IMG/VR virus record: IMGVR_UViG_3300023076_000001
Location: 1-51,515 of that record
Strand: one strand, 5' to 3'
Length of the DNA stretch: 51,515 nt
From: a virus
Lineage: Duplodnaviria > Caudoviricetes
Shown piece by piece: positions 21,205-40,428 of the stretch (positions are counted from its first letter, which is position 1; the number at the start of each line of letters is the position of its first letter). The notes below the pieces were generated by a model that made no database searches, was not told where the DNA came from, and saw only the letters and a list, made by a program, of their open reading frames with translations. The translations under genes and the position numbers were made by a program.

Positions 21205-21205
21205 A

Positions 21206-23333: not shown

Positions 23334-23488
23334 GCGTTCAGCTCGACCTATTCGACAGGCCGCTACCGAAGTGCGGCGATTGTCGCAACCTCGGGCCGGC
23401 GATTGAAAGCGGCGTTCGATATTGCCTGGGGTGCTTAACCTGGCGGTGGGCGGATGATCGGATCGATTGCCGGTCCTACAAGCCATGA
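23330..23488 (+). CDS. Unannotated 52-aa Cys-rich protein with N-terminal QLDLF clamp-binding motif
   Basis: MSVQLDLFDRPLPKCGDC...YCLGC...DC; 4-nt overlaps with both neighbours. Confidence 0.75.
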   Translation: MSVQLDLFDRPLPKCGDCRNLGPAIESGVRYCLGCLTWRWADDRIDCRSYKP

Positions 23489-24030: not shown

Positions 24031-24216
24031 GATCGGCGGCCTGGGAGGATCGCCGCCCTCCCAGGCCTGGGCCGCAGCGTCAACGAATGGTGCCAGCCAA
24101 GGCGAGGGACTAAGCCCCCGACGAGAACACCACCGGACTGAAGCGGCCTTGACCATTGAGATAGCGGATTGCCCGGCGTCTGTCCATTGACCGGATTATG
24201 ACGGAAGGCTTATGAA

Positions 24217-24282
24217 GGGCGGGCGGCGCTGCTACCAACAGCCGCCGCCCATAACCACCGGCTGCTAGGAGAGCCTGACGTG
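24217..24282 (+). promoter_or_regulatory. Hairpin-TAACC-RBS hairpin leader (copy 3)
   Basis: GGGCGGCGCTG..CAGCCGCCGCCC-ATAACC then GGCT..AGGAG.AGCC before GTG 24280 (18-aa ORF coupled to the methylase). Confidence 0.5.
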
Positions 24283-24332
24283 ATCGACCGGATAAATACC
24301 GGTGCGCCCTCTTTGTTGCAAGGGCGCTCTGA

Positions 24333-25825: not shown

Positions 25826-26423
25826 GAACCGCTTTCCCGAGGATGGCCCGGCATACCGCGTGGCTGTCACATGCGGGGTTCAGGTCGCATCGGTCGAACA
25901 GGCCATGGCGGCGGCTGAGCGCTTCCAAGGTGCGATGTTGCCCGCTACGCAAAGCCAAGTGGAAGATTGGTTCTACGCCTTGCGCTTGGCGACTGCTGGC
26001 GCAGCAAAGGCCGAAACTGACGAAGAGGCGCGACTAGCTCTGTACGTCAACGCTATGGCTCGATACCCCGCTGATGTTGCAAAGGCGGCGCTCGGGGCGT
26101 TCATGACGCGCACCAAGGGCTGCACGGCGTGGTTTCCGACCTTGGCCGAACTTGTCGCCGAAGCCGATAAGCTGGTCGCACCGCGTCAGGTCATCATCGC
26201 TGGATTGCTGGCCTGGAAGCCGAAGACGCCGGATCAGGAGCGCCAAGAAGACGCCCGAGAACTGTTATTCCAAGCTGTCGAAAAGGAGCGCGAGGCCTTC
26301 CAGTTCAAGCGCTCGGACGCGCCCAAATACGCAGCCATGATGGGCGAGGCCAAGGCGCTGAGAGCCAAGGCTGCCGACATGCGCCGTGGTGGACCCGCGC
26401 CCGAAACCCCCGAAGCCTTTTGA
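25689..26423 (+). CDS. Putative helicase loader/inhibitor-like protein (paralog 1)
   Basis: Follows the initiator; Y...MARYPAD...A...WFPTLAEL motif; ends PEAF. Confidence 0.55.
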   Translation: MGTELTKTTEADQRGWLVARTPDQVDAALLTSVASSFGAVLSVVSENRFPEDGPAYRVAVTCGVQVASVEQAMAAAERFQGAMLPATQSQVEDWFYALRLATAGAAKAETDEEARLALYVNAMARYPADVAKAALGAFMTRTKGCTAWFPTLAELVAEADKLVAPRQVIIAGLLAWKPKTPDQERQEDARELLFQAVEKEREAFQFKRSDAPKYAAMMGEAKALRAKAADMRRGGPAPETPEAF

Positions 26424-26495
26424 TTGCCAACCGCCCCGGATAGCACTACTGTAGCCAAACCGGGTTCGCCGACCCTAGCCGAGAGGAAATCGAAG

Positions 26496-26564
26496 ATGAC
26501 CAATGATGCTTGCAAGGTTGAGGCTTTCAAGGCCTCGGCCGTCTCTGTGAAGCGGGTGGCGTGA
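26496..26564 (+). CDS. 22-aa leader peptide
   Basis: GAGAGGA RBS; TGATG coupling to the NTase-like gene. Confidence 0.45.
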   Translation: MTNDACKVEAFKASAVSVKRVA

Positions 26565-26989
26565 TGAGTGTCTGGACGCAAGCCGAGGCCATCGAACTGG
26601 CCATCGCCATCGAGGCCGTTTGCCCGGCCTATGGATGCCATGTCGCCCTGACTGGCGGCCTCCTCTACAAGCCTGGCCTGCGGAAAGACGCCGATCTCCT
26701 GTTCTATCGCATCCGCGATTGGGATGAGATCGACGTGAAGGGCCTCTTCGGCGCTTTGGCGAGCCTTGGCATCGTGCAGGGCACGGACCATGGCTGGTGC
26801 AAGAAGGCGACCTTCCACGGCAAGCCGATCGACTTCTTCTTCCCTGACGACGACGGCTCTTATCCCGACCATCTGTCGGAAATCGATCTGTTGGACATGG
26901 ATGCGGTCGAGGCCTTCCACGACCTGAAGGCGGAAGCCCGCAAGGATCGCGCCGACATCGCGTCGCTCCAGTCGGAGGCGCAGTCGTGA
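26564..26989 (+). CDS. Minimal nucleotidyltransferase (Pol-beta superfamily)-like protein
   Basis: VALTGGLLY...RKDADLLF and a distal IDFF. Confidence 0.55.
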   Translation: MSVWTQAEAIELAIAIEAVCPAYGCHVALTGGLLYKPGLRKDADLLFYRIRDWDEIDVKGLFGALASLGIVQGTDHGWCKKATFHGKPIDFFFPDDDGSYPDHLSEIDLLDMDAVEAFHDLKAEARKDRADIASLQSEAQS

Positions 26990-27456
26990 CCTCCCCCACC
27001 GTAGACACCAAAGCGCCAAAGGTTCTGGCTGAGCGTGAAGAGCTTGCGCGGATTATCGATCCGAAGGCTTGGCGCGTCCGGCAGGAGCGTCTCGACCGCG
27101 CGGCCCACTGGCTGGAAAACCCCGACAAGTTCCGTCAGGCGGAAGCCGACATGTTCCATCGCGGAAACCTTTCGGACGCGGATCTCGCCGTTAAAGAAAG
27201 CCGCGCCAAGGCCGATGAATGGCTCTCCCGCACTGACGCCCGCAACACCGAGCTAGTCGCCCAGCGCGATGGGCTGGTGAATGCGGCTATCGAGGCGTTC
27301 GCCGCCGATGTTGTCGCGGAAGCCGTGCGGTACGCCCGCTGCTACCAGCCCGGAACGGACGGCTTCAACACCTTCCATCTGCTGGCCGACCGGATCGCGG
27401 CCCTTGCCAAAGACCGCATCATCCACCCATTCCGAGCGGCTGGCGGTGAGGCATGA
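26986..27456 (+). CDS. Hypothetical protein
   Basis: GGAGG RBS; REELARIIDP motif. Confidence 0.7.
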   Translation: MTSPTVDTKAPKVLAEREELARIIDPKAWRVRQERLDRAAHWLENPDKFRQAEADMFHRGNLSDADLAVKESRAKADEWLSRTDARNTELVAQRDGLVNAAIEAFAADVVAEAVRYARCYQPGTDGFNTFHLLADRIAALAKDRIIHPFRAAGGEA

Positions 27457-27611
27457 CGGCCAAGTGGTTTCGAAGGTTTGGCCAATGCAACACGCTGGGG
27501 TGCTCAAAGCCCGGCGCTGGCGAGTTGATGGACGAGCGCAACGGCGTGCTTGGGACATTCTGCGAGCGATGCGCCAAGATACGCATTCAGCGTGAGAGCC
27601 GAGCACAATGA
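27453..27611 (+). CDS. Unannotated 52-aa Zn-finger protein
   Basis: MTAKWFRRFGQCNTLGCSKP...FCERCA; ATGA overlaps at both ends. Confidence 0.7.
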   Translation: MTAKWFRRFGQCNTLGCSKPGAGELMDERNGVLGTFCERCAKIRIQRESRAQ

Positions 27612-28231
27612 CCGAACTCCCCCTGATCGGTGGCCAGATCAACGCCAAGCACCCCCGCGACCTGTGTAGCGCGGCTCTTTGGCGATACCTGACCGAGTCG
27701 CCTGCTGCATCCGGCGCCGCAAACTCTGTGGCTTGGAACCCAAAGCTTCGGGAAGAGGTCAGGGACGTGCGCGAGCGGTTCCAGGCCATGACCGGCCCGA
27801 TTGGTGCGGAGAGGCTGCTAGAGCGGCTTGCTGCAATGGCTCCAGGGTACGGACTGCCCGATATGGACCCAGACACCCTAACCGGCCTGCTGCGGCCCTA
27901 CGTGGCCGAGTTGATGCACCTTCCCGTCGCCTGCTTTGAGGATGCCGTGGAGCGTTGGAACGCTGGCGAAGGGATGAAGAAGTCACCCGAGAGCGCGCGG
28001 TTCATCTTTCCGCGTCCAGACCAGTTGCACGCGCTGGCCAAGCCATCGCTAACCGAAATCGCAACCGCAGCCTGGCGCTTTCGTAAAGCTGTCGAGGCCA
28101 TCGAGAAGTTGCCGCCTCCCAAGCGCGAGCGGCCAACGAAAGCGGATCTGATCGCGCAGGGAATCCTAGACAGCGAGGGACGGGCGATCCTGACCAAGAC
28201 CGCGCCGGCCGATATTCCAGAGGCATTCTAA
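27608..28231 (+). CDS. Putative helicase loader-like protein (paralog 2)
   Basis: Y..EL..LP....DA..RW...FPRPDQL motif resembles 25689; ends PEAF. Confidence 0.5.
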   Translation: MTELPLIGGQINAKHPRDLCSAALWRYLTESPAASGAANSVAWNPKLREEVRDVRERFQAMTGPIGAERLLERLAAMAPGYGLPDMDPDTLTGLLRPYVAELMHLPVACFEDAVERWNAGEGMKKSPESARFIFPRPDQLHALAKPSLTEIATAAWRFRKAVEAIEKLPPPKRERPTKADLIAQGILDSEGRAILTKTAPADIPEAF

Positions 28232-28247
28232 CCAACCTATCGCCCAC

Positions 28248-28283
28248 AAAAAAGGCCGCTGAGCAAATCGCCAGCGGCCTTTT
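28248..28283. terminator. Bidirectional intrinsic terminator
   Basis: AAAAAAGGCCGCTG...CAGCGGCCTTTT between converging operons. Confidence 0.88.
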
Positions 28284-28299
28284 CATGTGTGGTTATTTC

Positions 28300-28497
28300 T
28301 TAGGGCTCGGTCTCTTTCTTTCGAGCATCCTCACAAGCCTTCCAGTACTCCTCCGACTTGACGAGGTGCCAAGCGAAAACATCATCGCCCGGCAGGCAGT
28401 CGGTAGCGCTAGCGAAGATCTGGGCTGCGTTAATGACTGTGCGCCATGCACGCGCTGCCTTTTCGCCAAAGAACTCCTCTGGGGTTGGCTTGCTCAT
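28300..28497 (-). CDS. Hypothetical protein
   Basis: ATGA coupling; last gene of the leftward operon. Confidence 0.6.
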   Translation of the reverse strand: MSKPTPEEFFGEKAARAWRTVINAAQIFASATDCLPGDDVFAWHLVKSEEYWKACEDARKKETEP

Positions 28498-29327
28498 CGC
28501 CCTTCCCCCTGGCTATCGGGGGTAGGCGCGGCGGCGAGGGGTTCGAACCGGCCATCATAGAACTCAGGCTCTGGCCGCGCCCACATGCGGCCATCCTCGC
28601 CGCGATAAACGATCACCTCTTCTTCGTCCTCAAGGACCACATCGGAGGCGATCTGAACCACGGCGGTCCCTACAATCTCATAGGACGTCCCGCGCACCTT
28701 ATGACGGTGCGTCGGCTTCCACCCATCCCCAATAGCTGGGGCCTCGGAGTTCTTTGCATGGCTTGCAAACTTCTCGGCCTTGGAGGGGGCGGGAGGGGTG
28801 TTGATCGCGTTAGCGAGGGCGAGCGACGAGGCGCGCATCGCAGCCTCCCGGCCCTGGGGCCATGATGCGTCGAAAGCGGCCCGACAACGGCGGTAGACGT
28901 CGGCAGCAGCGTAGCCGCTCCCGTCGGTCAGGTGATCGCCTTCGAAGTCACTCCAGGCGGTCTCGCGCTCATCGTCTCGCGGCTCGTCTTCCCCCTCAGG
29001 GTTCGCGGCCTTAACCGGCTTGGCCAAGCTCATGACGACGCAGCCGGGAATAGCGAACGGGCCATCGTCCAAGATGAACGAGACCAAGCGGCTGACCTCG
29101 TCGCCGCTGTAGACCTCGCCATGAGGGCTGTACTCCAACAGGCGCAGCGTGTCGCCGACGCGGAAATCTCGGTCGTTCTTGCGGATCTCGAACCGCTTGT
29201 CGCCGCGCTTCACAGCCTGAAAATACTCAGGCCAGGTCTTCAGATCGTGCGTGATCGGCTCGCGTACTTCCCGTGGGCTCGCGCCCTTCGCCTCTCCCGT
29301 TGAGGCCGGGGTGGTGGGGGTGGTCAT
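28494..29327 (-). CDS. ASCH/PUA (DUF3850) domain fused to a DUF1653-like domain
   Basis: HDLKTWPEYFQAVKRGDKRFEIRKNDRDFRVGD; C-terminal HKVRGTSYEIVG..VIVYRGEDGRMWARP..F. Confidence 0.8.
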   Translation of the reverse strand: MTTPTTPASTGEAKGASPREVREPITHDLKTWPEYFQAVKRGDKRFEIRKNDRDFRVGDTLRLLEYSPHGEVYSGDEVSRLVSFILDDGPFAIPGCVVMSLAKPVKAANPEGEDEPRDDERETAWSDFEGDHLTDGSGYAAADVYRRCRAAFDASWPQGREAAMRASSLALANAINTPPAPSKAEKFASHAKNSEAPAIGDGWKPTHRHKVRGTSYEIVGTAVVQIASDVVLEDEEEVIVYRGEDGRMWARPEPEFYDGRFEPLAAAPTPDSQGEGR

Positions 29328-29543
29328 CTACCAAACCTTCCGAGTGAGGAGCGCGCTGATTTCCTTGGCGCACTCGGTGTTGCGGTGGCGGTTGCAGATC
29401 GCTTGGACCTCGGCGAACACGTCTTCGATGGCGTGAACGCGGTTGGCGTCCTTGAGGATCGCCTTCGCCAGCATTTCCGCTGATGACGCGGACATTTCCA
29501 CGCTCGCGGCCTTGGGCTGAACACCCTGGTTGTTGTCGGTCAT
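29328..29543 (-). CDS. Hypothetical protein
   Basis: Tight operon packing. Confidence 0.55.
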   Translation of the reverse strand: MTDNNQGVQPKAASVEMSASSAEMLAKAILKDANRVHAIEDVFAEVQAICNRHRNTECAKEISALLTRKVW

Positions 29544-29547
29544 GGCT

Positions 29548-29733
29548 CTAGGGCTTTCCGTGAAGGGGTGGGCGACCCATGATCAGGTCTTCAAAGACGA
29601 CTCGCTGCTCCCGGAGCGCGATGATTGCGGGCGTCATCTGGACCGGCTGGGCGGTCTCGACGCGCTCAATTGCTCCACGAAGCCGGTCCCAGGCTTCTGC
29701 GATTTCAAGAATGTCTGGCGTATGTCGGGCCAC
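29548..29733 (-). CDS. Hypothetical protein
   Basis: GGAG RBS; operon packing. Confidence 0.55.
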   Translation of the reverse strand: MARHTPDILEIAEAWDRLRGAIERVETAQPVQMTPAIIALREQRVVFEDLIMGRPPLHGKP

Positions 29734-29736
29734 GCC

Positions 29737-30180
29737 TCACTCCTCCGACTGAAGAAGGGCGCGGCCGGCGACCTCGTCGGGGTTGACCCAGATTGATCGA
29801 AGGGTCGCCGCTAGGGCCGTCAGGCCTTCGGGCGTGTCGATGTGATAGGAGCCGATCGCGAAGCCGTGAGCCCATTCGAGGGGTGACGGACACCCGCAAT
29901 GCCCATCGACACGGACGACTTTTCCATGGGTGGCGTGTAGCCGTTCGGCGACGTCTGGCGGAATGCCCGGCCCCTTAGCGCGCCAGTAGTACCAAGCGCG
30001 TTCAAACGACCACATGGATAGACCGCCCATGCACTTCGAGGGAACTTCGCTTGTGCCATACAGACCGCCGAAGACGTGGGGTTTGATTCCTGCGGCCTCT
30101 AATTCGGCCTTGCAGATCGCCGTGACCGCTTCGATTTCTTCTGGCGACGGGTCATGTCGCGCAAGGTTTGGGAAGCTCAT
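29737..30180 (-). CDS. Conserved hypothetical phage protein
   Basis: WSFERAWYYW..G..VRVDGHCG...YHIDTPEGL. Confidence 0.75.
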   Translation of the reverse strand: MSFPNLARHDPSPEEIEAVTAICKAELEAAGIKPHVFGGLYGTSEVPSKCMGGLSMWSFERAWYYWRAKGPGIPPDVAERLHATHGKVVRVDGHCGCPSPLEWAHGFAIGSYHIDTPEGLTALAATLRSIWVNPDEVAGRALLQSEE

Positions 30181-30183
30181 GGC

Positions 30184-30489
30184 CTATTCCTTGGTCTGAA
30201 CTGGGGAGAGGAGGGCGTCGATCTGTTCCCGGATGATGTCGTCCATCACCTCCCGAGCCATCACATTCATGGCGGGCTGCAGCGAGCGCAGGATGTCGCG
30301 CATCTTTTGCAGCCCCGCCTCAAGCTCCCCAATCCGAGCCCGCGCCAACTCCAGCGCTTCGGCCTGGGCTTCCGTGGCCTTCAGGTATCCGGCCTCGAAT
30401 GCCTCTATCCGCGTCCCCTTTCCGGAGCCGGGAGCGCGCTCATTCAGGTAGTCCAGCGCCAGCCGTTGAATGTCAGGTGACAGGCCCAT
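30184..30489 (-). CDS. Hypothetical coiled-coil protein
   Basis: TGATG coupling; AFEAGY motif. Confidence 0.6.
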   Translation of the reverse strand: MGLSPDIQRLALDYLNERAPGSGKGTRIEAFEAGYLKATEAQAEALELARARIGELEAGLQKMRDILRSLQPAMNVMAREVMDDIIREQIDALLSPVQTKE

Positions 30490-31181
30490 CACGCACCCCC
30501 TTCCGGCTTTGTGGGTTGGATGGAGAGGGCGGTGTGAACCGTGGCGAGGATGGCCCGAGCACGGATGATCGACCGCTCCCACGCCCAATCGTAGAACCAC
30601 TCGTAATCGAAGGCGTCAGGCGGAACCTCAAGCGTGACGAGGGGGTCCTTGTAGTGGGTGCAGATCAGGCGCGCGATCTTCTCCTCAAGGCTCAGCGTGG
30701 AGAGCGTCGCTGCGGCCTCCTGCATCTGGCCATAGTTCCCGCGATTGCCGCTCCAGGCTTGATCCGGGATCACACCGGTAGCGGGCTTCAGCAGTTCTTC
30801 CAGCCGGGCAGCGCGGGCCTCTGAAGCAGTGGCGCGGGCTACAACGGCCGATATCGCAGCGTCCCAATCGTTCCGGTATTGCCCACCGTCAGCCACCTTG
30901 AGGGCTTTCGCGAAATGAGCCTCTCGCGCTCTGAAGTTCTTGTTCTCCTCCTCCGCAGCCGTAAGGGCAGAGCGTAGAGAGGCGATGGTCGCCGTTGCGG
31001 TCTCGTCGTGCGAGAGGCTGGCGGCGAAGGTGAGACCGACGCGCTCATAGTCGGTCCGCGCGTCATCCGGCAACATGCTCCACATTCCTAGAACGAGGAT
31101 GGCCTGGCGGGTCCAGACCGCGTCAGCCAGCTTCTCGCCGAGGCTCTTCCCCTCTACCGTCGCTTGGTCCTGGGCCTTCAT
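30489..31181 (-). CDS. Hypothetical mosaic early protein
   Basis: AAGGA RBS; coiled-coil middle region. Confidence 0.65.
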   Translation of the reverse strand: MKAQDQATVEGKSLGEKLADAVWTRQAILVLGMWSMLPDDARTDYERVGLTFAASLSHDETATATIASLRSALTAAEEENKNFRAREAHFAKALKVADGGQYRNDWDAAISAVVARATASEARAARLEELLKPATGVIPDQAWSGNRGNYGQMQEAAATLSTLSLEEKIARLICTHYKDPLVTLEVPPDAFDYEWFYDWAWERSIIRARAILATVHTALSIQPTKPEGGA

Positions 31182-31252
31182 GGTTGGTTCCTTTTTGGCT
31201 GTGTCGGGCAGCGACCCGACGTATGGACGATAGCCTCAAGCGATGCTGTAGT

Positions 31253-31687
31253 CTAGCGCTTTGAGAACGAGCGCTTGGGCCAGGGCTTGGGCGTGTCAGG
31301 CTTCTGAAACCCGCGTGACGGGATGGTCTTGGCCGATTGGATCTTGGCTTTTCGCTTCACGGGCTCGGGCGGCGGTATATATCCGGGAGGGCAAACGACG
31401 AGATGGCCGCTCTCGATAAGCCAACGCATTGTTGCACGGTGGGCGGCTTCCCAGAGGTTAAACCTGACTATCGGGTCTCCGGGGCCGACATCTACGAACG
31501 CATGGCATTTGGCGCACAGGAAGGCGATAGCGGCGTCGCTGGCCTTGATCCCCATGCCTTTCCCATCCCGCCCCTGATTGCTATGGGCCGATACGACGTC
31601 GCCCTCGTTAGGCTTGTGGCACGACAGGGCCATGCAGCGCGGCGCTTGGCGGGCGATGTCCAGTAGCGCGCGGCAACGAAAGGTCAC
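31253..31687 (-). CDS. DUF1364/YbcO-like Zn-binding nuclease-domain protein
   Basis: C...C..VVSAHSN..GKGMGIKASD..AFLCAKCH. Confidence 0.8.
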   Translation of the reverse strand: MTFRCRALLDIARQAPRCMALSCHKPNEGDVVSAHSNQGRDGKGMGIKASDAAIAFLCAKCHAFVDVGPGDPIVRFNLWEAAHRATMRWLIESGHLVVCPPGYIPPPEPVKRKAKIQSAKTIPSRGFQKPDTPKPWPKRSFSKR

Positions 31688-31944
31688 GCCGCCTCCGCAT
31701 CTTCGGCCCGCGCCGCGTCTTGATCCTTGATCGACTGCAGCAACATGCGCCGCATCGTCAGGGCCTTTTCCGCGACCTCTAGGGCAAGGTCTGCGGCCTG
31801 GCTGACTGCGGCCTCAGTGGCCCCTTGACGGCCAAGGCGTGAGCCTAGAGCGCGCCCGTGGTTCTCGACCTGATTGGCCAGGGCGCGGACCTCTTCAGGG
31901 ACGAAGTATCGGCCGGCGCCGACTGCGAAGGGCGGAAGGGTCAT
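31684..31944 (-). CDS. Hypothetical protein
   Basis: Coupled stop/start overlaps. Confidence 0.6.
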   Translation of the reverse strand: MTLPPFAVGAGRYFVPEEVRALANQVENHGRALGSRLGRQGATEAAVSQAADLALEVAEKALTMRRMLLQSIKDQDAARAEDAEAA

Positions 31945-32396
31945 CAGTTCGGCTCCGCGTAGAAGATGGATTCGCGCGGCGCGATGTTCTGAACCGCACG
32001 GTTGAAGGCCATCCCGAGCGCGGCGACCTTGTCGGCGGCATAGGTCGGGAAATAGGCGTCGCGGTCATCGCGGTTGACGAGATTGGCGAAAGCTCCGTGT
32101 TCCTCGTCGTTGCGAACGAGCCACGTCCAGTTTGGAAGTCGCTCCTCGATTTGGGCGATGACGCTTTCGAGCGTCGGCGGCGGGGTCGGGTGGATGGGGA
32201 AATCGTTCTTTTGCTGGGGCGTCATGGTCTCTTGCTCCTTGAGGTATGCGAGGGCTTCGGCTTTGCCCTTTTGGGCCTCGTCCCAGGTCGCGTAAGCTTC
32301 CCAGAGCGTGCGGTCGATCAACTCGCCTTGGCGGTGGATGATGACCCGATAGCGGTTTTCGCCAAGCTGGCGTTCTTCGATCTCGACGTGTGCCAT
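31944..32396 (-). CDS. Hypothetical protein (possible internal start at 32225)
   Basis: MAHVEIEE...; internal AAGGAG before MTPQQK. Confidence 0.55.
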   Translation of the reverse strand: MAHVEIEERQLGENRYRVIIHRQGELIDRTLWEAYATWDEAQKGKAEALAYLKEQETMTPQQKNDFPIHPTPPPTLESVIAQIEERLPNWTWLVRNDEEHGAFANLVNRDDRDAYFPTYAADKVAALGMAFNRAVQNIAPRESIFYAEPN

Positions 32397-32397
32397 T

Positions 32398-32595
32398 TCA
32401 GTGGGAATCCTTAGGGGTGATGGCGACGCAGACGAAGCGAGGCCCCTCCTGCTGGTCGGCGTGATCGGCATCGTAATCAAAGTCGTCCTCGTCCTCGATG
32501 TCATCCGTCCAGCATTCGGGGTGAGGGCAATGATCGCACCCGCAGCCCGAAAAGCCGTCATACCCGCAGCAAAGGAAGCCGCACGCGTTGCACAT
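32398..32595 (-). CDS. Cys-rich acidic microprotein
   Basis: AGGAG RBS; 8 Cys in the first 28 aa, then DDIEDEDDFDYD. Confidence 0.7.
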   Translation of the reverse strand: MCNACGFLCCGYDGFSGCGCDHCPHPECWTDDIEDEDDFDYDADHADQQEGPRFVCVAITPKDSH

Positions 32596-32631
32596 TTTCA
32601 GGTCTCCTAGACAGTTGAGAGGTGAGGGGGC

Positions 32632-32886
32632 TCATCCCCGTGGGGGTGGGGCTAGGCCAGCGCACTTCGGGCAGGGTTCGTCCCATCCGTGGGCCTGTTC
32701 GAAATTGACCGTGCCGACGCCGTGACACATCGGGCAGCGGTTTACGTAGGCGATCAGGCCCTTGAGAAACTCGTTGATCTGATGGTCCTGCGTCACCCGA
32801 AGGTCGGCATTGGCGTTGAACACGCGGCTAAGACGTTGAGCGTCTTCAGCGGTGATCGTAGGGAGCGTGATGGCCTTGCCCATCAC
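32632..32886 (-). CDS. Small protein with DnaJ-type Zn finger
   Basis: CPMCHGVG...CPKCAG. Confidence 0.7.
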   Translation of the reverse strand: MMGKAITLPTITAEDAQRLSRVFNANADLRVTQDHQINEFLKGLIAYVNRCPMCHGVGTVNFEQAHGWDEPCPKCAGLAPPPRG

Positions 32887-33188
32887 GTGGCCTCCGACAC
32901 TTCAGCCAGCAGCGTCTCGATGGCGCTTTCGGCGAGGAAGTCGGCGATGTTGGCTAGCAGCTTCTGCTTGGCCTCGGACGCCAGACCTGCCAGCAGATCG
33001 ACGCGGGTCCATCCGCCAGCGCAGCGGCGCAGTCCGGCAATGCTCGTGACCTCGACGTCTTCCATGGTGTCGGGCTCGGCCGGCGTGCCGCCGCAAGCGT
33101 AGGATGGGCCGGTTTCGGGAGAGCCGGGGAAAAACGCGCCCGACAGGGTGACCTCGACCTCGAAAGAGTCGGTAGCTCGTACTTGCAT
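32883..33188 (-). CDS. Hypothetical acidic protein
   Basis: AGGAG RBS; GPSYACGGTPAEP motif. Confidence 0.7.
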   Translation of the reverse strand: MQVRATDSFEVEVTLSGAFFPGSPETGPSYACGGTPAEPDTMEDVEVTSIAGLRRCAGGWTRVDLLAGLASEAKQKLLANIADFLAESAIETLLAEVSEAT

Positions 33189-33217
33189 CTCAGTATCTCC
33201 TATTCTGGCGGGAGGGG

Positions 33218-33601
33218 TTAGGTGGGGCCGTCATAACCAAGGCCATCAAACCTGGACTCGGCTAGGCAAAGCCAATGCATGCCTTCGCTGGCCATTTCCG
33301 ACCACTTCATGCACTCGCGAGCGCCGCGCAGAAGCTCCTCGACCTGGGACAGGCGCGGAGATGCGGCCTCCAGTGTCGCCACCTTTGAAGCGCGCTCGGC
33401 TCTGAGCTTTTCAGTTTCGCCGCCGATACGTTCGACTTGGTCGATCTTGCTGGCGAGGGTAACGATGGCGTCTCGGGCGGCGGGACCCGCAACCTCAAGA
33501 AGCTTGGCCTCCTCGCGCATCAGCCTCGTCACCATCTCGTGGTAATGATGGTTGCGGTCGCGGAGAGCGGACCGCATCTCGCCGCGCTTCCAGCCGGTCA
33601 T
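33218..33601 (-). CDS. Hypothetical coiled-coil protein
   Basis: Operon coupling. Confidence 0.6.
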   Translation of the reverse strand: MTGWKRGEMRSALRDRNHHYHEMVTRLMREEAKLLEVAGPAARDAIVTLASKIDQVERIGGETEKLRAERASKVATLEAASPRLSQVEELLRGARECMKWSEMASEGMHWLCLAESRFDGLGYDGPT

Positions 33602-33810
33602 TGATCAGCCTTCCCCGCCTCGTAGGCCGCCATGTGGCGCGCGCCAGTCAGCGGGCTTTCGCCCATTTCGTACATGCCGTGAGCGTCGCCGAACATGGCA
33701 TCCGGAACGCCGAGCTTGGCGCACTCGGCGTTGAGCATCGGCCACCAGTCGATGAACTTGGTGTTCACGTAGGTGCGCTGGGTTTCGAGCTTGCGGAGAG
33801 CGGCTGTCAT
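33598..33810 (-). CDS. Hypothetical protein
   Basis: GGAAGG RBS. Confidence 0.6.
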   Translation of the reverse strand: MTAALRKLETQRTYVNTKFIDWWPMLNAECAKLGVPDAMFGDAHGMYEMGESPLTGARHMAAYEAGKADQ

Positions 33811-33847
33811 GTCGGTTGCCTTCCAATCGTGTATAGAGGTTGAAGAG

Positions 33848-34144
33848 TTAGGCGGTGAAGCGGGCGGCTTTGGCGCGCTTGATCTGGCGCCGGATCATCT
33901 TGAGGTGCGAGAACAGCGCGGCGCGCACGGCGCGGCGGTCATCGTGGCCCCAGCATTCGAGATTGAACGCGGCGTCGCAGCGCTCGACCATCAGCGAATG
34001 ATAGGCCGTGGCATAGCGATGGGCGATGAAGCCGTCAGCAGCTCGCAGGCGGGCGAGGGCGGCGTCGCGGCGAACCATGAGGCGGCTGCGCGGGTTGGCC
34101 ATGACCTTAGCGGTGTGGGCTTCGATGTCGGCGAGGGTGGTCAT
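33848..34144 (-). CDS. Hypothetical basic early protein
   Basis: GAGAG RBS; first gene of the leftward operon. Confidence 0.6.
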   Translation of the reverse strand: MTTLADIEAHTAKVMANPRSRLMVRRDAALARLRAADGFIAHRYATAYHSLMVERCDAAFNLECWGHDDRRAVRAALFSHLKMIRRQIKRAKAARFTA

Positions 34145-34179
34145 TTTGGTTCTCTCTGGCTGTAGGGGCGGCGACCCCG

Positions 34180-34275
34180 TGACCCGAATAAAGCATGAGT
34201 GTAGGTGTGGACGCAAGCGATAAAACATCACTGTAGCGGATTGACACCGGGAAAGGCTGGGCGAATTATCATGGC
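34180..34275. promoter_or_regulatory. Divergent early promoter region
   Basis: Minus strand TTGCGT..TTTATT; plus strand TTGACA at 34241; two CAT-N3-TGTAG boxes (34194, 34226). Confidence 0.55.
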
Positions 34276-34407
34276 ATTGAAGTGTTAGGTTTTGGCCTGA
34301 AGTTTCCTTGAACCCCGGAGAGACCACCATGCATCCCGGCGGCTAAATCCGCCCACAAGCCGAAGCACCTTCAGTAAGCCCCCGATCATGGTCGGGGGTT
34401 TTGTTTT
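34275..34407 (+). ncRNA. Putative structured sRNA containing minigene MHPGG
   Basis: Promoter upstream; 34276-34296 pairs with 34351-34375; GGAGA RBS plus ATG CAT CCC GGC GGC TAA (34329-34346); terminator at the end. Confidence 0.5.
34376..34407 (+). terminator. Intrinsic terminator
   Basis: CCCCCGA-TCATGG-TCGGGGG-TTTTGTTTT. Confidence 0.85.
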
Positions 34408-34447
34408 GTCCGTTGACAACAGTATCGCTTACCGACATTCATGGCCC

Positions 34448-34822
34448 GTGGATGTTCGCCGACCTCCCCCACTCCGACAGTCGGTGAATCATCGCGAGAG
34501 GCCCGCCAACCGCGCCCAATCCGACATGTTCGGTGCGACGAGCAAACGGCCCCTGGGACCTAGAGAACCCCAGGACAAGCCGTGGAAACGCGGGCCTCTC
34601 CATCAATCGGGATCGCCGTCCCAGAGGAAAGCCATGACCAGAGCCACGCGCCCCAAAATTCTCGCCTATCTAGGCACCGGCCCGAAGACTATCGAACAGG
34701 TCGCAGACCATTTTCTGATGCGTTACGGATCGACCGTAGCCATGTTGGGGCGCGCATGTGATCGAGGCATGATCCGAGTTCGCCGAGAAGGTGGCCGCAA
34801 TGTGTACGAGGCCAAACCATGA
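34448..34822 (+). CDS. Winged-HTH DNA-binding protein (start uncertain; alternatives 34526 and 34634)
   Basis: KILAYLGTGPKTIEQVADHF..L...GMI....G..VY; TTGACA promoter at 34413. Confidence 0.6.
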   Translation: MDVRRPPPLRQSVNHRERPANRAQSDMFGATSKRPLGPREPQDKPWKRGPLHQSGSPSQRKAMTRATRPKILAYLGTGPKTIEQVADHFLMRYGSTVAMLGRACDRGMIRVRREGGRNVYEAKP

Positions 34823-35190
34823 CCGAGACCATGCGAGAGCGGTTGATCGCGGCTTTCTTGGCTGAGACTAAGCGACAGGGCGTCTGGACATACTTTCATG
34901 AGTGGGACGACGAGGCCCCTGTAGAAATCCCATCGGCCCACAAAATGCACATTCAAAGCGAGGTTGAGGGTGGCGGCTTGGATGCATATGCACTACTCGA
35001 CGCCATCCTGGCCGAGCTGCGGGAGCCTGATGCGGACACCGTCCAAGCGGTCGCGCGAGCTATCGGCCTGGAAGACAGCGGGACCGACATCGAATTGATC
35101 GACGAAGGCAGAGGCTCGCATCAAACTTATACCGCCTGCGCTAAGGCCGGGATCGCCGCCATGATTGATGCCATAAGGGTCAAGCCATGA
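34819..35190 (+). CDS. Hypothetical protein
   Basis: AILAELREP..AMIDA motif common in alphaproteobacterial phages. Confidence 0.7.
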   Translation: MTETMRERLIAAFLAETKRQGVWTYFHEWDDEAPVEIPSAHKMHIQSEVEGGGLDAYALLDAILAELREPDADTVQAVARAIGLEDSGTDIELIDEGRGSHQTYTACAKAGIAAMIDAIRVKP

Positions 35191-35312
35191 CCCACAAAGA
35201 CCTTTCCCCACACGCCAAGGCCGACCCGCGCCAAGCCCGCTATGAGGTCGCCCGCCGTGCGTTCCAAGCCCTTCATGGGCGCGTTATCAAGCGCATGGAC
35301 ACCAACCGTTGA
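35187..35312 (+). CDS. Unannotated 41-aa basic peptide
   Basis: ATGA coupling; MTHKDLSPHAKADPRQARYEVARRAF... Confidence 0.4.
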   Translation: MTHKDLSPHAKADPRQARYEVARRAFQALHGRVIKRMDTNR

Positions 35313-35362
35313 CCCTCACCAACCGCCAAGCCGCATCCCGCGCCATATGGGCCAAGAGGAAG

Positions 35363-35533
35363 ATGAAAACGACCCCCTTCGATCCCGCCGACTACATCGA
35401 CAACGAAGAGGCCGCAGGCTTCTTCCTCGCGGAAGCACAAGCCACGGGCGATGAGCGCTTTATCGAGGACGCTAAGGCCGTCGTTGAACGCGCCCGTAAA
35501 CGCTGGCTAGACGAAACCGAAAAGCCGTCGTAA
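35363..35533 (+). CDS. Truncated HI1420-family antitoxin-like protein (N-terminal half only)
   Basis: GAGGA RBS; MKTTPFDPADYIDNEEA..FFLAEA..TGD..FI.DA..VV.RAR. Confidence 0.7.
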   Translation: MKTTPFDPADYIDNEEAAGFFLAEAQATGDERFIEDAKAVVERARKRWLDETEKPS

Positions 35534-35645
35534 CGTCTCCATCGCCCCTCTAGGCGCTTTGCCACCTGTGTTCTCCCGGAGCCGTCGTCCTTAGTTGGGC
35601 GGCGGCTTTGGTCGTTTTGGTCTCCGAAAATCTCGGCAAAACATC

Positions 35646-35692
35646 CATGGTATATGGACTGAGTACAAGATTGATGTATTTCATACACCATG
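35646..35692. promoter_or_regulatory. Imperfect inverted repeat (operator) overlapping the start of the XRE gene
   Basis: CATGGTATATGGA ... TTCATACACCATG (11/13 match). Confidence 0.5.
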
Positions 35693-35884
35693 AAAGCCAG
35701 AGAACTCCGCATCGCCCTTGCCGAAATCGGCATATCCCAGGCTGAGCTAGCTCGCATCTTGGGCCGATCCGCCAACACCGTAACAGGATGGGTCAACTCC
35801 GACTCCATGCCGCCAGAGGTCCGGTTGTTTTGCCGTGTCGCCAAAGACCACGGCCTCGCCTATGCGAAGGCTGCCGTCCAATGA
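35690..35884 (+). CDS. XRE/Cro-like HTH regulator
   Basis: LAEIGISQAELARILGRSANTVTGW. Confidence 0.88.
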   Translation: MKARELRIALAEIGISQAELARILGRSANTVTGWVNSDSMPPEVRLFCRVAKDHGLAYAKAAVQ

Positions 35885-36447
35885 AACGCGCTTATGTTTA
35901 CGTGATCAGCGCTGGTGAAATGCACCAGAAAATCGGCATCACAACCAACATCAACACCCGCGTCGCCACGCTTCAAACCGCGCACTATCATCAGCTCACG
36001 CTGCTGCATTTTGTTGAAAATGAGTGCGCTGCATGGATTGAGGCCAGATGCCATGAATTGTTGAAGCATCGGCGCTTGCGGGGAGAGTGGTTCTTTATGA
36101 CCCGCGAGGAAGCAGTTTCGGTTGTGCAGAAAGTGACACGACAAGCCGTTCCTGGTGTGAACGACCCCGGATATACCCCAAACCTTTTCCGTGAAGGCCA
36201 AAGGATCGTTTGCATCGCGGAGCATATCAATGCCGACGATGACGAGCCTGAGGTGACTATCGGAGAGGTTTATACCGTCTCGTTCGTTCATGAAAATTGG
36301 TACTTGAGCCTGGAGGAGCTTCCGACCGACGAGGTTTGTTTTTGCCCGTCACGGTTTCGGCCATTTAACGAAGACACAAGTGAAGATTTGATGAGGCTGC
36401 TTCAAGTTCCAGCTTTGGGCTCCAATAAGATTCCCGAGGCGATTTAG
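35881..36447 (+). CDS. GIY-YIG (T5orf172/MUG113-like) nuclease-domain protein
   Basis: YVYVI..KIGIT...RVATLQT..IE..CH..LRGEWF; extra C-terminal F..GQRIVC domain. Confidence 0.85.
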   Translation: MKRAYVYVISAGEMHQKIGITTNINTRVATLQTAHYHQLTLLHFVENECAAWIEARCHELLKHRRLRGEWFFMTREEAVSVVQKVTRQAVPGVNDPGYTPNLFREGQRIVCIAEHINADDDEPEVTIGEVYTVSFVHENWYLSLEELPTDEVCFCPSRFRPFNEDTSEDLMRLLQVPALGSNKIPEAI

Positions 36448-36538
36448 GTGGACGAGTTCGGAGACGCGCCGGCCAAGACGTGGCGCAAGATCGATCCGCC
36501 AGGTTCGCGGCTCAAGCAGCCTAAGAAGGGGAAGTGAC

Positions 36539-37303
36539 GTGCCCCTAATTTTCGATGTTCTTAGCGACACTCGCCCCCATAAGGGTGAAAGCCCTTTAAC
36601 CTCGCAGGTTCGGGATATTTGGCGCGAAAAGTCCTATTCGGAAAACCTCACTAATACCCCGAAGTACGTTTTCAATATGGATGTCATTGTCACGGCGGCC
36701 GAACTCGGCAGCTCTTGCCCTGACCCTGATATAGCTGCGTTCAGCCCCGCATGGGTCGAGTGGGACGCAGACAATGATTTGACGCTGGCCGTACTTCTAG
36801 GGGATCGCGGCGAGGCCGGATTGATGTTCCTCTATAACAAAAGGGAGGGCACGCTTTACGATTTCACGTTCACCACATACCGCGACCCGATGCTTAGGGT
36901 CCGCATCAAGAACCGAGAGGCCCATAAAGGTCGAACATCCATTGCTGAGCACGCTGCTGCGGCATGGGTGCGGGTAATCAAAGCCATCGCGCTTTTGCAA
37001 AGCCCTGGTCTTCTTGATGTCAGTGAGCGCCATGGCGCCGATGAGAAGTTGCAGAAGGCCCGCATCAAAGCCGGAAAGCGCCCCCTAGTCGATTTCCGCG
37101 AGGTCGTGATTCATATCAGCCGCCAGGAACGCGAAGCCCGCGAGCGTGCGGCCGACTATGAGAAGCGAACCGGCAAGCGACTGCACCGCGTACGGTCGTT
37201 TGTCCGCATGAGGCTCGGTAAGCTTGAAAGGGTTCGCGAGCACTGGCGGGGCGACGCTTCTAACGGAGCGGTCGGGGTCCGAAACTATCGCGTGAAGCTA
37301 TAG
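36539..37303 (+). CDS. Hypothetical protein with C-terminal H.VR.F.R...VREHWRG motif
   Basis: KLQKARIKAGKRPL and RLHRVRSFVR..VREHWRG basic motifs typical of a phage nucleic-acid-binding family. Confidence 0.7.
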   Translation: MPLIFDVLSDTRPHKGESPLTSQVRDIWREKSYSENLTNTPKYVFNMDVIVTAAELGSSCPDPDIAAFSPAWVEWDADNDLTLAVLLGDRGEAGLMFLYNKREGTLYDFTFTTYRDPMLRVRIKNREAHKGRTSIAEHAAAAWVRVIKAIALLQSPGLLDVSERHGADEKLQKARIKAGKRPLVDFREVVIHISRQEREARERAADYEKRTGKRLHRVRSFVRMRLGKLERVREHWRGDASNGAVGVRNYRVKL

Positions 37304-37379
37304 CCCTAGCGCCTAAGCCCTGTCGGTGGCATTTATGCCCGGGTATATCCAATCTGATAAACCGGTTCTGTAATTCGCC

Positions 37380-37793
37380 ATGACGTTAAAGCCGAAGAAA
37401 CCACCTGTAGCTAGAGGCCAGAATGGGGGCGTCCGAAAGGGCGCTGGCAGGCCTCGGGGCGCGGTCTCTCAAATCAAATTGGACCTGAAGCAAAAGGCCC
37501 AGCAATACGCCGACATCGCCCTGGCAACCCTGGCTGAGATCGCCAAGGACAAGAAGGCGCCGCAAGCCGCTCGCGTGTCGGCGTCAAACTCCCTTCTCGA
37601 CCGTGGATACGGAAAGGCGATCCAGTTCGTTGACGCCCATGTCGAGACGGTGGGCAATGTCGGCGTATATCGTGTTGACCGATCCAAGGCCGAGGAGCTG
37701 CAAACCGCAGAACTTGGGGCCACGTTCGCGGCGGCCGACTCCGATCCTGAAGACTATGACACGTCAGAGGACGAAATCGACGAGGCGGTCTGA
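37380..37793 (+). CDS. terS: Terminase small subunit
   Basis: GGVRKGAGRPRG, ARVSASNSLLDRGYGK; coupled to terL. Confidence 0.85.
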   Translation: MTLKPKKPPVARGQNGGVRKGAGRPRGAVSQIKLDLKQKAQQYADIALATLAEIAKDKKAPQAARVSASNSLLDRGYGKAIQFVDAHVETVGNVGVYRVDRSKAEELQTAELGATFAAADSDPEDYDTSEDEIDEAV

Positions 37794-39025
37794 TGATCGT
37801 TGATCCGGTCCCGGCTTACAGGTTCCTCACCGACAAGCCTCTAGGGTCATATCGGTATCGCGCGGCCTACGGCGGCCGTGGTGGGGCGAAGTCCTGGGAG
37901 TTCGTTGACGCCGTTCTCGTACATGCGCTTGAGAACCCTAAGCTCCGCGTCGCCTTTGTGCGCGAGATCCAGGCGACGCTAGAGGAGTCGTCTATTCAGC
38001 TCGTCCGGTCGCGGATCGAATATCACGGGCTCGCGGGCTACTTCCGAGAGGTGAAGAACACCTTCATTGGCCGCCATGGTCAGAAGATCATGTTCATCGG
38101 CTTGTGGAAGGGTAACAAGCCCAGCGGCATCAAGTCGCTTGAGGGCGTACACCTGACCATCGCGGAGGAAGCGCAGGAAATGCGCCAGGTCTCCCTGGAT
38201 GTTCTTTTCCCGACCGTGATGCGTACCGGCAAGTCCGAGATTTGGGCGCTGTGGAACCCGAACCTTGAAACCGACCCCGTGGACAAGTTCTTTCGGGGGC
38301 CGATCAAGCCCAAGGGCGCGATAGTTCGTCGCATCAATTGGGATAAGAACCCGCATTTCCCCGTTGCTCTTCGCGAGCAGATGGAGACAGACCGCGCGAA
38401 AGACCCCGAGCGCGCGGCCCACATCTGGGACGGCAAATATACGCCCGGCGTCCAGAACTCGATTTGGAGCCGCAAGACGATTGACGCGGCTTGGCGCAAA
38501 GGGCTGCTTTACCGCTCCGCGACATTCGAGCGCATCGTCATCGGCGTTGACCCGGCTGGCGGTGGCGATGACGTCGGTATCGTCGTGGTCGGGCAGATCG
38601 GGGACAGCGCCGTTGTTCTGGAAGATGGGACGATGCCATCCAAGGAGCCGTTGGCCTGGGCGACCAAGATCAACCAGCTTGCCGAGAAGTGGGACGCTGA
38701 CTGTGTCGTGGTCGAACGCAACTACGGCGGCGCCCTGGTCGAGGCCAACCTGAGAGCGGGTGGCGTTCAAGTCCGGGTGGTCGAAGGTAACGCCACGCGA
38801 GGTAAGCACGTCCGCGCCGAGCCCATCGCCTCGCTGTATGATCAGGGCCGAGTCGCCCACATCAAGCCGTTCCCCGAAATGGAGTCGGAAATGCTAATGA
38901 CGACACCGGCCGGATATGAGGGTACTTTCTCGCCCAACCGCATGGATGCGCTTGTGTGGGCCATCACTGAACTGAACCTTGCCGACAGTCCGCAAGCGTT
39001 CATGCTGCTTAAGAGGACGGGATGA
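37793..39025 (+). CDS. terL: Terminase large subunit (PBSX-like)
   Basis: Walker A YGGRGGAKS, Walker B IAEEA, nuclease IGVDPA and RMDALVW. Confidence 0.95.
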   Translation: MIVDPVPAYRFLTDKPLGSYRYRAAYGGRGGAKSWEFVDAVLVHALENPKLRVAFVREIQATLEESSIQLVRSRIEYHGLAGYFREVKNTFIGRHGQKIMFIGLWKGNKPSGIKSLEGVHLTIAEEAQEMRQVSLDVLFPTVMRTGKSEIWALWNPNLETDPVDKFFRGPIKPKGAIVRRINWDKNPHFPVALREQMETDRAKDPERAAHIWDGKYTPGVQNSIWSRKTIDAAWRKGLLYRSATFERIVIGVDPAGGGDDVGIVVVGQIGDSAVVLEDGTMPSKEPLAWATKINQLAEKWDADCVVVERNYGGALVEANLRAGGVQVRVVEGNATRGKHVRAEPIASLYDQGRVAHIKPFPEMESEMLMTTPAGYEGTFSPNRMDALVWAITELNLADSPQAFMLLKRTG

Positions 39026-40428
39026 ACGCTGCGACCGCCGCCCTAGAAACCATCGCCAACGCTCAAGTGACCGATGGCCCATGGAACAACCGCCAGGTTT
39101 CGGTTTTCCAACCGACTTGGGCCAAGCACGACCATTACAAGGACTTTGGGTGGCCGCTCCCGAACGCCCTCACGTTCAACGACACGTACACGATGTACTG
39201 CCGCAACGGGATCGGAACGGCGGTCGTTGACAAGACCGTGGCCAAGACCTGGGAGACACACCCGTTCCTGCTGCAAAAGCCGCGTGACGGGTCGGAAGGC
39301 TCCCAGATCAAGGAAACGTCCCAGGAAGCCGCGATCCGCACGCACCTGACCAACATTCGGGGCTGGCAATCGCTGATGGAGGCGGACGTTCGGGGCATGG
39401 TTGGCCGGTATGCGGGCGTCATCCTGCAATTGGCCGATGGCGGGGCCTGGGATCAGCCGGTTACGCGCGTCCCCGGTGGGATTAAGGGCCTCGTCAAACT
39501 CATCCCGGCTTGGGAAGGTCAGCTCGTTGTCTCGCAGTTCGAGACGGACGCGACGAAGCCCAACTACGGCCAGCCCGCTATGTTCCAGTTCAACGAGCAG
39601 GCGGTGGGCGAGGTCTACGCGGGCGCCGGTCGTTCCATGATGATCCACCCCGACCGCGTCGTGATCTGGTCGCGGGATGGCTCGGTCAACGATAAGAGCG
39701 CCTTGGAGTCGTGCTTCAACGCCCTGTTGACCACCGAGAAGGTCAGCGGAGCGGGTGGCGAGGGCTTCTACAAGAACGCCCGGTCAAACCCTGTCCTAGA
39801 GGCCAATGAGGGCGCAAAGCTCGATCAGATGGCCAAGGCCTACGGCATGACCATGGAGCAACTGCAAGAGGCGATGAGCGATCAGGTCGCCAGGCACAAC
39901 CGAGGCTTTGATATTGGCCTCTTCTTGCAGGGCATGACGGCCAAGACCCTGGCCATCACGCTTCCGAGCCCCGAGCACTTCTACAACATCGCCCTGCAAG
40001 AGGTGAGCGCGGCCCGGCGCATCCCGCTTAAAATCCTCGTCGGCTCTCAGTCTGGCGAACGCGCATCCACCGAGGACGCGAACGAGTGGGGCCAGACCTG
40101 CAACAGTCGCCGCGCAAACGAGACGATTCCTAACATCATGAGCGTGGTCGCCCGGTGGGTTAAGTTCGGCATGATCCCCGAAGGCGATTGGTCGGTGTTC
40201 TGGACCGATCTGACCGAAGCGAAAATGTCGGAGAAAATCGACCGCGTGACCAAGATGGCCGAGGCGAACGCCAAGCTCCAAGCCTCTGGGGAATACTACT
40301 TCACCCCGGAAGAGGTGCGGGCTGTAGTGGACCTAGAGCCTTTGACCGAGAACGAACGTAAGGTAGAAGCGATGGACGACACCGACGAGGCCGACGCCAC
40401 CGTTGGCGCTGGGGACCAAAGCCAATGA
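39022..40428 (+). CDS. Portal protein (DUF1073 family)
   Basis: After terL; P.WEGQL, IHPDRV, SGAGGEGFYKNA, IPLKILVGSQSGERASTED. Confidence 0.9.
   Translation: MNAATAALETIANAQVTDGPWNNRQVSVFQPTWAKHDHYKDFGWPLPNALTFNDTYTMYCRNGIGTAVVDKTVAKTWETHPFLLQKPRDGSEGSQIKETSQEAAIRTHLTNIRGWQSLMEADVRGMVGRYAGVILQLADGGAWDQPVTRVPGGIKGLVKLIPAWEGQLVVSQFETDATKPNYGQPAMFQFNEQAVGEVYAGAGRSMMIHPDRVVIWSRDGSVNDKSALESCFNALLTTEKVSGAGGEGFYKNARSNPVLEANEGAKLDQMAKAYGMTMEQLQEAMSDQVARHNRGFDIGLFLQGMTAKTLAITLPSPEHFYNIALQEVSAARRIPLKILVGSQSGERASTEDANEWGQTCNSRRANETIPNIMSVVARWVKFGMIPEGDWSVFWTDLTEAKMSEKIDRVTKMAEANAKLQASGEYYFTPEEVRAVVDLEPLTENERKVEAMDDTDEADATVGAGDQSQ

Follow-up and report, generated by a model that had tools for sequence, protein, structure and literature searches.

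An accessory promoter-RNA-terminator cassette in an uncultivated leaf-litter siphovirus as a candidate phage sRNA gene

Accessory sRNA genes of phages are documented mainly in enterobacterial prophages. Morons, as described in PMC3594210 and PMC10914365 (both after Juhala et al. 2000), are stretches of extra DNA relative to related phages that deviate in GC content and carry their own promoter and terminator. According to PMC4104026, moron sites of lambdoid prophages also harbour sRNA genes, namely those of the anti-sRNAs AsxR and AgvB, while PMC7547250 describes the short pR'-tR' transcript of Stx phages as the sRNA StxS. Minigenes represent a further class of very small phage elements, for which PMC2490762 reports less peptidyl-tRNA build-up and less toxicity as the length increases from 2 to 8 codons, both effects being dependent on scarce tRNAs and low Pth activity. 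The locus presented here bears a resemblance to each of these systems.

The window, i.e. the whole stretch of DNA analysed (51,515 bp), is the complete IMG/VR virus record IMGVR_UViG_3300023076_000001 (Caudoviricetes) with direct terminal repeats and a genome GC of 0.614. Family scans (60 proteins with PHROGs, 45 with Pfam) assign this uncultivated leaf-litter/soil phage to the siphoviruses. On the plus strand, genes for TerS, TerL, portal, decoration protein and major capsid protein start from ~37.4 kb, and those for the tape measure, tail proteins and lysis continue past the record ends to ~14.7 kb. They are followed by RecT-type and exonuclease genes on the minus strand (14.8-21.1 kb), methyltransferases and a replication initiator on the plus strand (21.5-28.2 kb), and a minus-strand group of small genes, mostly without family match, that includes an ASCH gene and an HNH gene (28.5-34.14 kb). 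Integrase, repressor and antiterminator families were not recognised among the 60 proteins scanned with PHROGs and the 45 scanned with Pfam, many of which have no family match. The closest organism-named relatives of TerL (64% identity) are encoded on two Phenylobacterium MAG contigs (L013 and L014) that are probably prophages and share TerS as well, the portal of L013 being 54% identical; there is a hint that the host of the window phage may likewise be an alphaproteobacterium. Three homing-endonuclease-like genes are scattered over the genome (HNH at 31253-31687 on the minus strand, T5orf172/MUG113, GIY-YIG-like, at 35788-36447 on the plus strand and HNH at 48183-49034 on the plus strand), one of which sits in the middle of the structural operon. 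In addition, an 84-aa protein (32632-32886, minus strand) shows weak zinc-ribbon matches to Anti-TRAP (E 4e-4) and DnaJ CXXCXGXG (E 2e-3), both under the Pfam cut-offs.

The element of interest lies ~3 kb upstream of the terminase genes in a non-coding stretch (34145-34633) that separates the first leftward gene (33848-34144, minus strand, start at 34144), encoding a 98-aa protein without family match, from the first rightward gene (34634-34822, plus strand, start at 34634). The latter encodes a 62-aa protein with a weak MarR_2 winged-helix match (E 1.1e-4, under the Pfam cut-off). After ~3 kb, the rightward genes lead into TerS, TerL and portal.

Over 32500-36500, the window was compared with contigs from four runs of leaf litter (X1-X4). 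Run X1 contains the window's sequence and could be where it originates from. The contig of run X2 begins at 34398 and hence covers at least the 3' end of the element; no contig of X2 was obtained for 34242-34375, which carries no weight in either direction. In contigs of X3 (record 18) and X4 (record 23), position 34247 is instead joined to 34436 via 16 other letters, and these 16-letter versions differ from each other at one position. The element is thereby delimited as an accessory cassette of 188 nt (34248-34435, plus strand), in place of which the relatives carry 16 unrelated nt, i.e. a net difference of 172 nt. A further IMG/VR contig, L035, was retrieved by an exact 21-mer from the downstream leader; it also lacks the cassette, carries the same 16 letters as X4 and matches the window at 96.0% identity over 34072-34247 and at 99.1% over 34436-34653. 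A 22-mer from the left flank again retrieved L035 only. Across the cassette-less relatives (L035, X3 and X4), the flanks are 96-100% identical to the window. As the runs stem from one year and habitat, possibly from one sampling campaign, and L035 may belong to the same population as X4, these data are counted as at least two cassette-less alleles and not as three independent observations. Without an outgroup, the polymorphism may reflect either gain of the cassette by the lineage of the window or its loss by the others.

Within 34248-34435, the cassette is composed, in this order, of a spacer and -10 hexamer, the predicted RNA, a terminator, and a new -35 hexamer with its spacer. Its GC content of 0.537 falls into the lowest 2.9% of all 188-nt windows of the genome (0.614), with the adjoining non-coding DNA (34145-34247) being equally low at 0.534; low GC is typical of any non-coding DNA. 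The only open reading frames offered as cargo are one of five codons and unconvincing antisense frames, among them a minus-strand ORF of 44 aa (34285-34419). A 62-aa N-terminal extension of the leftward gene, running from an ATG at 34330 through the cassette, was rejected, as it is impossible in the cassette-less relatives. A MITE was likewise dismissed, since the indel boundaries lie off the stem arms and the genome has no second copy.

A sequence-only reading of this DNA had proposed a stand-alone RNA at a divergent early switch. The first part holds well: the RNA lies between a promoter and a terminator, and the unit as a whole is either present or cleanly absent in phages that are near-identical to each other. 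Of the second part, the position between a leftward operon and a rightward unit led by the winged-helix gene stands, while "early switch" remains an interpretation. Non-conservation in relatives, which the same reading had named as part of its refuting condition, applies in the sense that the element is entirely absent from the closest relatives; this argues for an accessory rather than an unreal element.

The promoter signals at both ends of the cassette are remarkably arranged. The candidate promoter P1 consists of a TTGACA -35 hexamer (34241-34246, plus strand), which is shared with the cassette-less relatives given that identity extends through 34247, and of an AATTAT -10 hexamer (34264-34269, plus strand) that is located 17 nt past the -35 inside the cassette. 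The resulting TTGACA-N17-AATTAT (34241-34269) agrees with 10/12 positions of the E. coli-type consensus, which may not be that of the host. P1 is the sole promoter-like site in 33800-35000 (0.3 in shuffles), and of two sites with at least 10/12 in a genome-wide scan it is the only intergenic one. The genome has six TTGACA hexamers, all on the plus strand, and two of them flank the unit. These two (34241 and 34413) are exactly 172 nt apart, in agreement with the net size of the indel. With the second one begins P2 (TTGACA-17-CATTCA, 34413-34441, plus strand), a candidate promoter of the rightward unit, whose -35 hexamer and spacer are cassette DNA and whose -10-like hexamer (34436-34441) is common to the relatives. 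The cassette-less L035 has a single TTGACA-17-CATTCA with the same geometry as P2 of the window. Its spacer agrees with that of P2 at 3/17 bases and with that of P1 at 4/17, and the spacer must hence have been replaced and not simply deleted. L035 and P2 both have TTGACA and CATTCA separated by 17 nt in spite of having no more than 3/17 spacer bases in common, which argues that the downstream unit may be transcribed from P2 and that the cassette may be transcriptionally self-contained. An origin of P2 as a duplicate of P1 was rejected, with only the hexamers and TCATGG in common and 5/17 spacer bases in agreement.

The RNA predicted to start from P1 would comprise ~133 nt (34276-34408, plus strand). 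Its putative start, A34276, is situated 7 nt past the -10 hexamer and coincides with the first base of a closing stem of 19 pairs, in which a 5' arm (34276-34299) pairs with a 3' arm (34356-34375) in both the MFE and the centroid structure. Between the arms, the predicted fold contains a weak inner hairpin (34302-34324), a single-stranded segment (34325-34337) and a small hairpin (34338-34353). The body of ~100 nt alone folds with -29.2 kcal/mol (z -2.00; 9/200 shuffles fold as well), the body together with the terminator reaches z -1.81, and the reverse strand only z -0.19, so that the fold is specific for the plus strand. Taken together, these values suggest a real fold that is moderately unusual compared with chance. 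The body is directly followed by a predicted intrinsic terminator (34376-34408, plus strand) made up of an 11-pair stem (34376-34401) and the U-tract TTTTGTTTTG, in which the 3' end of the RNA would fall. The stem is the second strongest among 20 terminator-like sites in 20000-39999.

All structural elements of the sequence-only reading are thus recovered at the coordinates given. Its TTGACA promoter is present and, as part of P1, stands out from chance, as does its strong terminator behind the loop, and the ~130 nt whose 5' part was said to pair with the 3' part correspond to the 19-pair stem. Of the checks that it had suggested, folding returned the structure, albeit with a z of only about -2, and covariance-model searches gave no Rfam match at gathering thresholds.

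Could these signals merely be chance or relic spacer sequence from which nothing is transcribed? All of them are consensus matches only, measured against an E. coli-type consensus that may differ from that of the host. On the other hand, a 10/12 promoter, a stem whose first base is the putative start and a strong terminator follow one another in the right order within 170 nt and as a single indel block, with two of the six genomic TTGACA hexamers at its borders. An unexpressed element is hence very unlikely.

As the best reading, to which we assign a probability of roughly 45%, the cassette is an autonomous and dispensable promoter-RNA-terminator unit (an "RNA moron") in the promoter region of the rightward operon that encodes a trans-acting, base-pairing regulatory sRNA. 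It rests on the combination of features that define morons with the known occurrence of sRNA genes in such places: relative to L035, X3 and X4, the unit is additional DNA; it has its own promoter by sequence match, the -35 of which is common to the resident promoter, and its own terminator, also by sequence match; and its composition deviates (0.537 versus 0.614), as does that of the adjoining non-coding DNA. Since a protein cargo is lacking, it is read as an accessory sRNA gene. From the observed signals, the predicted fold and the presence/absence polymorphism, we infer transcription, RNA ends, action in trans and a target in the following manner. The resident -35 together with the near-consensus -10 of the cassette (P1) would drive synthesis of a ~130-nt, panhandle-shaped RNA ending at the strong intrinsic terminator with its U-tail. 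Behind the terminator, the cassette would bring in another TTGACA, placed exactly 17 nt ahead of the -10-like hexamer of the resident promoter (P2), which would leave the downstream operon with a promoter of unchanged geometry. The sRNA may then base-pair in trans with host or phage mRNAs, conceivably via the exposed segments 34325-34337 and UUUCCUU (34303-34309), while the closing stem might protect its 5' end and the hairpin with U-tail could provide a chaperone-friendly 3' end. For a conceivable Hfq-type sRNA, which would need a Rho-independent terminator hairpin with a 3' U-tail and an accessible seed, the sequence offers a hairpin followed by a U-tract, and the predicted fold leaves some segments unpaired.

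A partner for such pairing was sought within the phage. When the rest of the phage was searched by BLAST for antisense matches to the RNA, the best one had 12 nt (E 0.31), and helix scans stayed at shuffle level for the neighbouring leader (19/300 shuffles) and the 5' UTR of the 98-aa gene (67/300). For 67 start regions, the computed duplex energies were of no use, as the method returned duplexes of unrealistic length.

Homologues of the RNA were sought by several routes. Rfam at gathering thresholds gave 0 matches in the whole window, and in E-value mode 34100-34700 returned 8 sub-threshold matches that lie largely over the terminator (best 20.7 bits versus a gathering threshold of 55); ARAGORN found 0 tRNAs or tmRNAs. 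There was no blastn match of 34100-34700 in 50,697 phage records. Three exact RNA seeds hit 9, 0 and 9 stretches in IMG/VR, all 18 of which are judged to be chance, because they match in the seed only and mostly belong to genomes of unlike GC. BLAST of 34241-34440 against 301 Caulobacteraceae genomes gave one 24-nt hit over the terminator (E 8.5e-4). With a covariance model built on the single sequence, 14 sources returned nothing beyond the sequence itself, and 151 Caulobacteraceae genomes gave one hit with E 0.007, which is about the chance expectation. Searches with the neighbouring proteins extended the view to more distant loci. While no protein relatives of the 98-aa neighbour were found, the 123-aa protein of the rightward unit led to one distant locus (L002) and TerL to loci at 63-64% identity (L003, L004/L010, L013 and L014) that share only TerS, TerL and portal. 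The intergenic region has no similarity in these TerL relatives, and a scan of L013 for promoters and terminators did not reveal a comparable unit upstream of TerS.

The orientation of the unit invites a different explanation, in which P1 and the terminator give rise to a promoter-proximal terminated transcript similar to lambda pR'-tR' (6S RNA/StxS), and antitermination or attenuation would, by way of read-through, set the expression of the rightward and later the packaging genes. In line with such a cis-acting leader, the unit immediately precedes the rightward genes that lead to TerS, TerL and portal and points in their direction. A second strong terminator of the same direction follows at 35576-35611, so that terminators in series exist, and short terminated transcripts of late promoters are known from PMC7547250 to become sRNAs. 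There is also a weak Rfam likeness to leader-peptide attenuators (Phe_leader 19.4 bits versus a gathering threshold of 55, His_leader 17.5 versus 49), yet all Rfam scores are far under threshold. Against this explanation, near-identical relatives lack the P1 -10, the RNA and the terminator and nevertheless keep the downstream leader and genes; P1 is thus not a sole promoter conserved with the late genes. Moreover, the new -35 of P2 stands right behind the terminator at 17-nt spacing, which would make the operon independent of P1. A cognate Q-type or N-type antiterminator or a late activator was not recognised (60 proteins with PHROGs, 45 with Pfam), although a novel factor is conceivable among the many proteins that match no family. 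Finally, a 9-nt repeat (34311-34319) can pair with the 3' half of the terminator, but no upstream segment complementary to its 5' half was seen. Control of the rightward genes by read-through is therefore improbable, and the unit is not likely to serve as a leader that the late genes require.

The rightward unit has a structured leader of its own outside the cassette (34445-34633, plus strand), identified by fold and comparison and 99% identical in relatives. With -76.8 kcal/mol and z -3.17 (1/200 shuffles as good) for 34445-34640, its fold is more convincing than that of the sRNA. It includes a perfect 11-bp long-range stem (34496-34506 with 34590-34600) and two 23-nt direct repeats (34457-34479 and 34504-34526) that are 83% identical and each end at a CCGACA hairpin. 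In L035, this leader is kept at 99% while the DNA on either side is swapped. It may represent a cis-regulatory RNA or a protein-binding site. Further downstream, 35576-35611 is the strongest terminator-like site in 20-40 kb, with 15 pairs, located just past the 74-aa gene and conserved in L035 (3661-3626, minus strand). Hence, the unit of the 62-aa, 123-aa and 74-aa genes looks separately terminated. Beyond this terminator, an AT-rich region precedes an Xre/Cro-like HTH gene (35690-35884).

The surroundings of the cassette are a mosaic hot spot (34.1-37.4 kb), in which several blocks of the window are replaced by others in L035. Blocks that are 96-99% identical to the window alternate in L035 with unrelated DNA: it has 139 nt instead of the ~520 nt of 34654-35174, and ~2.9 kb instead of the ~3.4 kb of 35624-38992, including the TerS/TerL region. 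X3 shows a further replacement with 466 letters between 34637 and 35310. In such a region, the cassette could be a non-functional shell, either a promoter and terminator left from a protein-coding moron after deletion of its gene or neutral recombination debris, with an RNA that is perhaps made and inert. An internal gene deletion would be expected to leave just such a good SD and ATG with no more than five codons, and a homologue was not found in any search made. A random deletion product, however, need not begin its RNA at a long closing stem nor display a strand-specific fold, and the precise regeneration of a downstream promoter with 17-nt spacing suggests selection on the arrangement. We regard such a shell as a minor possibility that retains some weight.

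The same arrangement could be read as a portable RNA gene that landed between the resident -35 and -10, borrowed the former for its own strong transcription and donated a new -35 at 17 nt, leaving the resident operon undisturbed; its RNA would belong to a new family that reprograms a soil alphaproteobacterial host. This "promoter-splitting" RNA moron is quite unlikely; if true, promoter splitting would constitute a previously undescribed and transcriptionally neutral route for the acquisition of sRNA genes by phages.

The body of the predicted RNA also contains a short open reading frame. An SD-like GGAGAG (34317-34322, plus strand) precedes by 6 nt the mini-ORF ATG CAT CCC GGC GGC TAA (MHPGG; 34329-34346, plus strand), i.e. 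an ATG, 4 further sense codons and a TAA at 34344-34346 in the layout of bar-type minigenes. In the predicted fold, the weak inner hairpin takes in part of GGAGAG (34320-34324 are paired), the single-stranded segment carries the ATG and the TAA is placed in the loop of the small hairpin. Minigenes of the lambda bar type sequester peptidyl-tRNA. By analogy, translation of MHPGG might sequester peptidyl-tRNA or ribosomes, or yield a regulatory micro-peptide. The spacing of GGAGAG and the predicted accessibility of the start codon would suit this idea, and according to PMC2490762 minigenes of 3-8 codons can accumulate peptidyl-tRNA. The same source, however, describes a fall of toxicity and drop-off from 2 to 8 codons and a need for scarce tRNAs and low Pth activity, and the last sense codons of the mini-ORF are GGC in a genome of 61% GC, which would probably be common in the host. 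When the 100-nt body was shuffled 20000 times, 4.9% of the shuffles contained a 4-mer SD with an ATG at 4-9 nt, and the genome contains 10 comparable SD-led ORFs of at most 10 codons on both strands; for these reasons, the mini-ORF alone is not beyond chance. Furthermore, the SD is partly paired, relatives do without the unit, a PTH2 gene is absent from the window phage, and the RNA is known from one copy, which leaves no second for conservation of the ORF. Of the sequence-only reading, the GGAGA ribosome-binding site and the ATG-CAT-CCC-GGC-GGC-TAA in the loop are thus present as described, while its interpretation as a ribosome- or tRNA-sequestering minigene finds no support, with an SD and ATG near chance, an SD that is half paired in the predicted fold and more codons than the most toxic minigenes. 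Its alternative of a regulatory sRNA coincides with the best reading given above, as a candidate function. We consider this function highly improbable.

A curious observation beside the peptidyl-tRNA idea is that the distant viral contig L002 encodes a PTH2 peptidyl-tRNA hydrolase (2056-2427, Pfam E 4.2e-19). Two TTGACA-like hexamers precede the gene, and the homologue of the window's 123-aa protein follows three genes further downstream; any link to the mini-ORF would be speculative.

The preferred reading as an accessory sRNA cassette derives its value from a clean natural pair of cassette-plus and cassette-minus alleles in an uncultivated leaf-litter siphovirus, which are otherwise nearly identical around the site. 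This pair defines the exact boundaries of the unit, its optional status and the splitting and rebuilding of a promoter by the insertion. If the RNA is active, it would add a novel sRNA family and extend phage riboregulation to new hosts. If it is inert, the locus would exemplify how promoter-terminator shells persist in mosaic regions.

Several known systems invite comparison. The lambda bar and synthetic toxic minigenes covered by PMC2490762 share with the cassette an SD-led ORF of few codons in non-coding phage DNA. The effects described there are strongest for the shortest ORFs, for scarce tRNAs and in Pth-deficient cells, whereas MHPGG has five codons, ends on GGC GGC and is partly structured. 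Lambda 6S and StxS, as presented in PMC7547250, resemble the unit in a strong promoter and an intrinsic terminator within ~130-200 nt upstream of rightward genes, and such an RNA can act in trans. In that account, Q antitermination inevitably yields StxS, which is conserved along with Q, whereas the unit of the window is optional, its downstream operon has its own predicted promoter, and a Q-like gene was not recognised. AsxR and AgvB are, like the predicted cassette RNA, small accessory RNAs with a terminator at their end that are encoded near a phage promoter region. PMC4104026 describes them as RNAs of 51-60 nt in homologous families downstream of pR' in enterobacterial prophages, with Hfq binding and targets shown, while the cassette RNA, a prediction from sequence, has no similarity to them. 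With the morons of PMC3594210 and PMC10914365, the cassette shares extra DNA, its own promoter and terminator, a deviating GC content and a location in a mosaic part of the genome. It differs from the morons described there in its cargo, which is a predicted non-coding RNA of ~100 nt and not a protein gene, in its phage, for which no integrase or repressor was recognised (60 proteins with PHROGs, 45 with Pfam), and in its position between the -35 and -10 of a resident promoter that it rebuilds. The cassette is hence of a known kind, that of the phage accessory sRNA and moron cassettes, with an insertion geometry inside a promoter that is unusually tidy.
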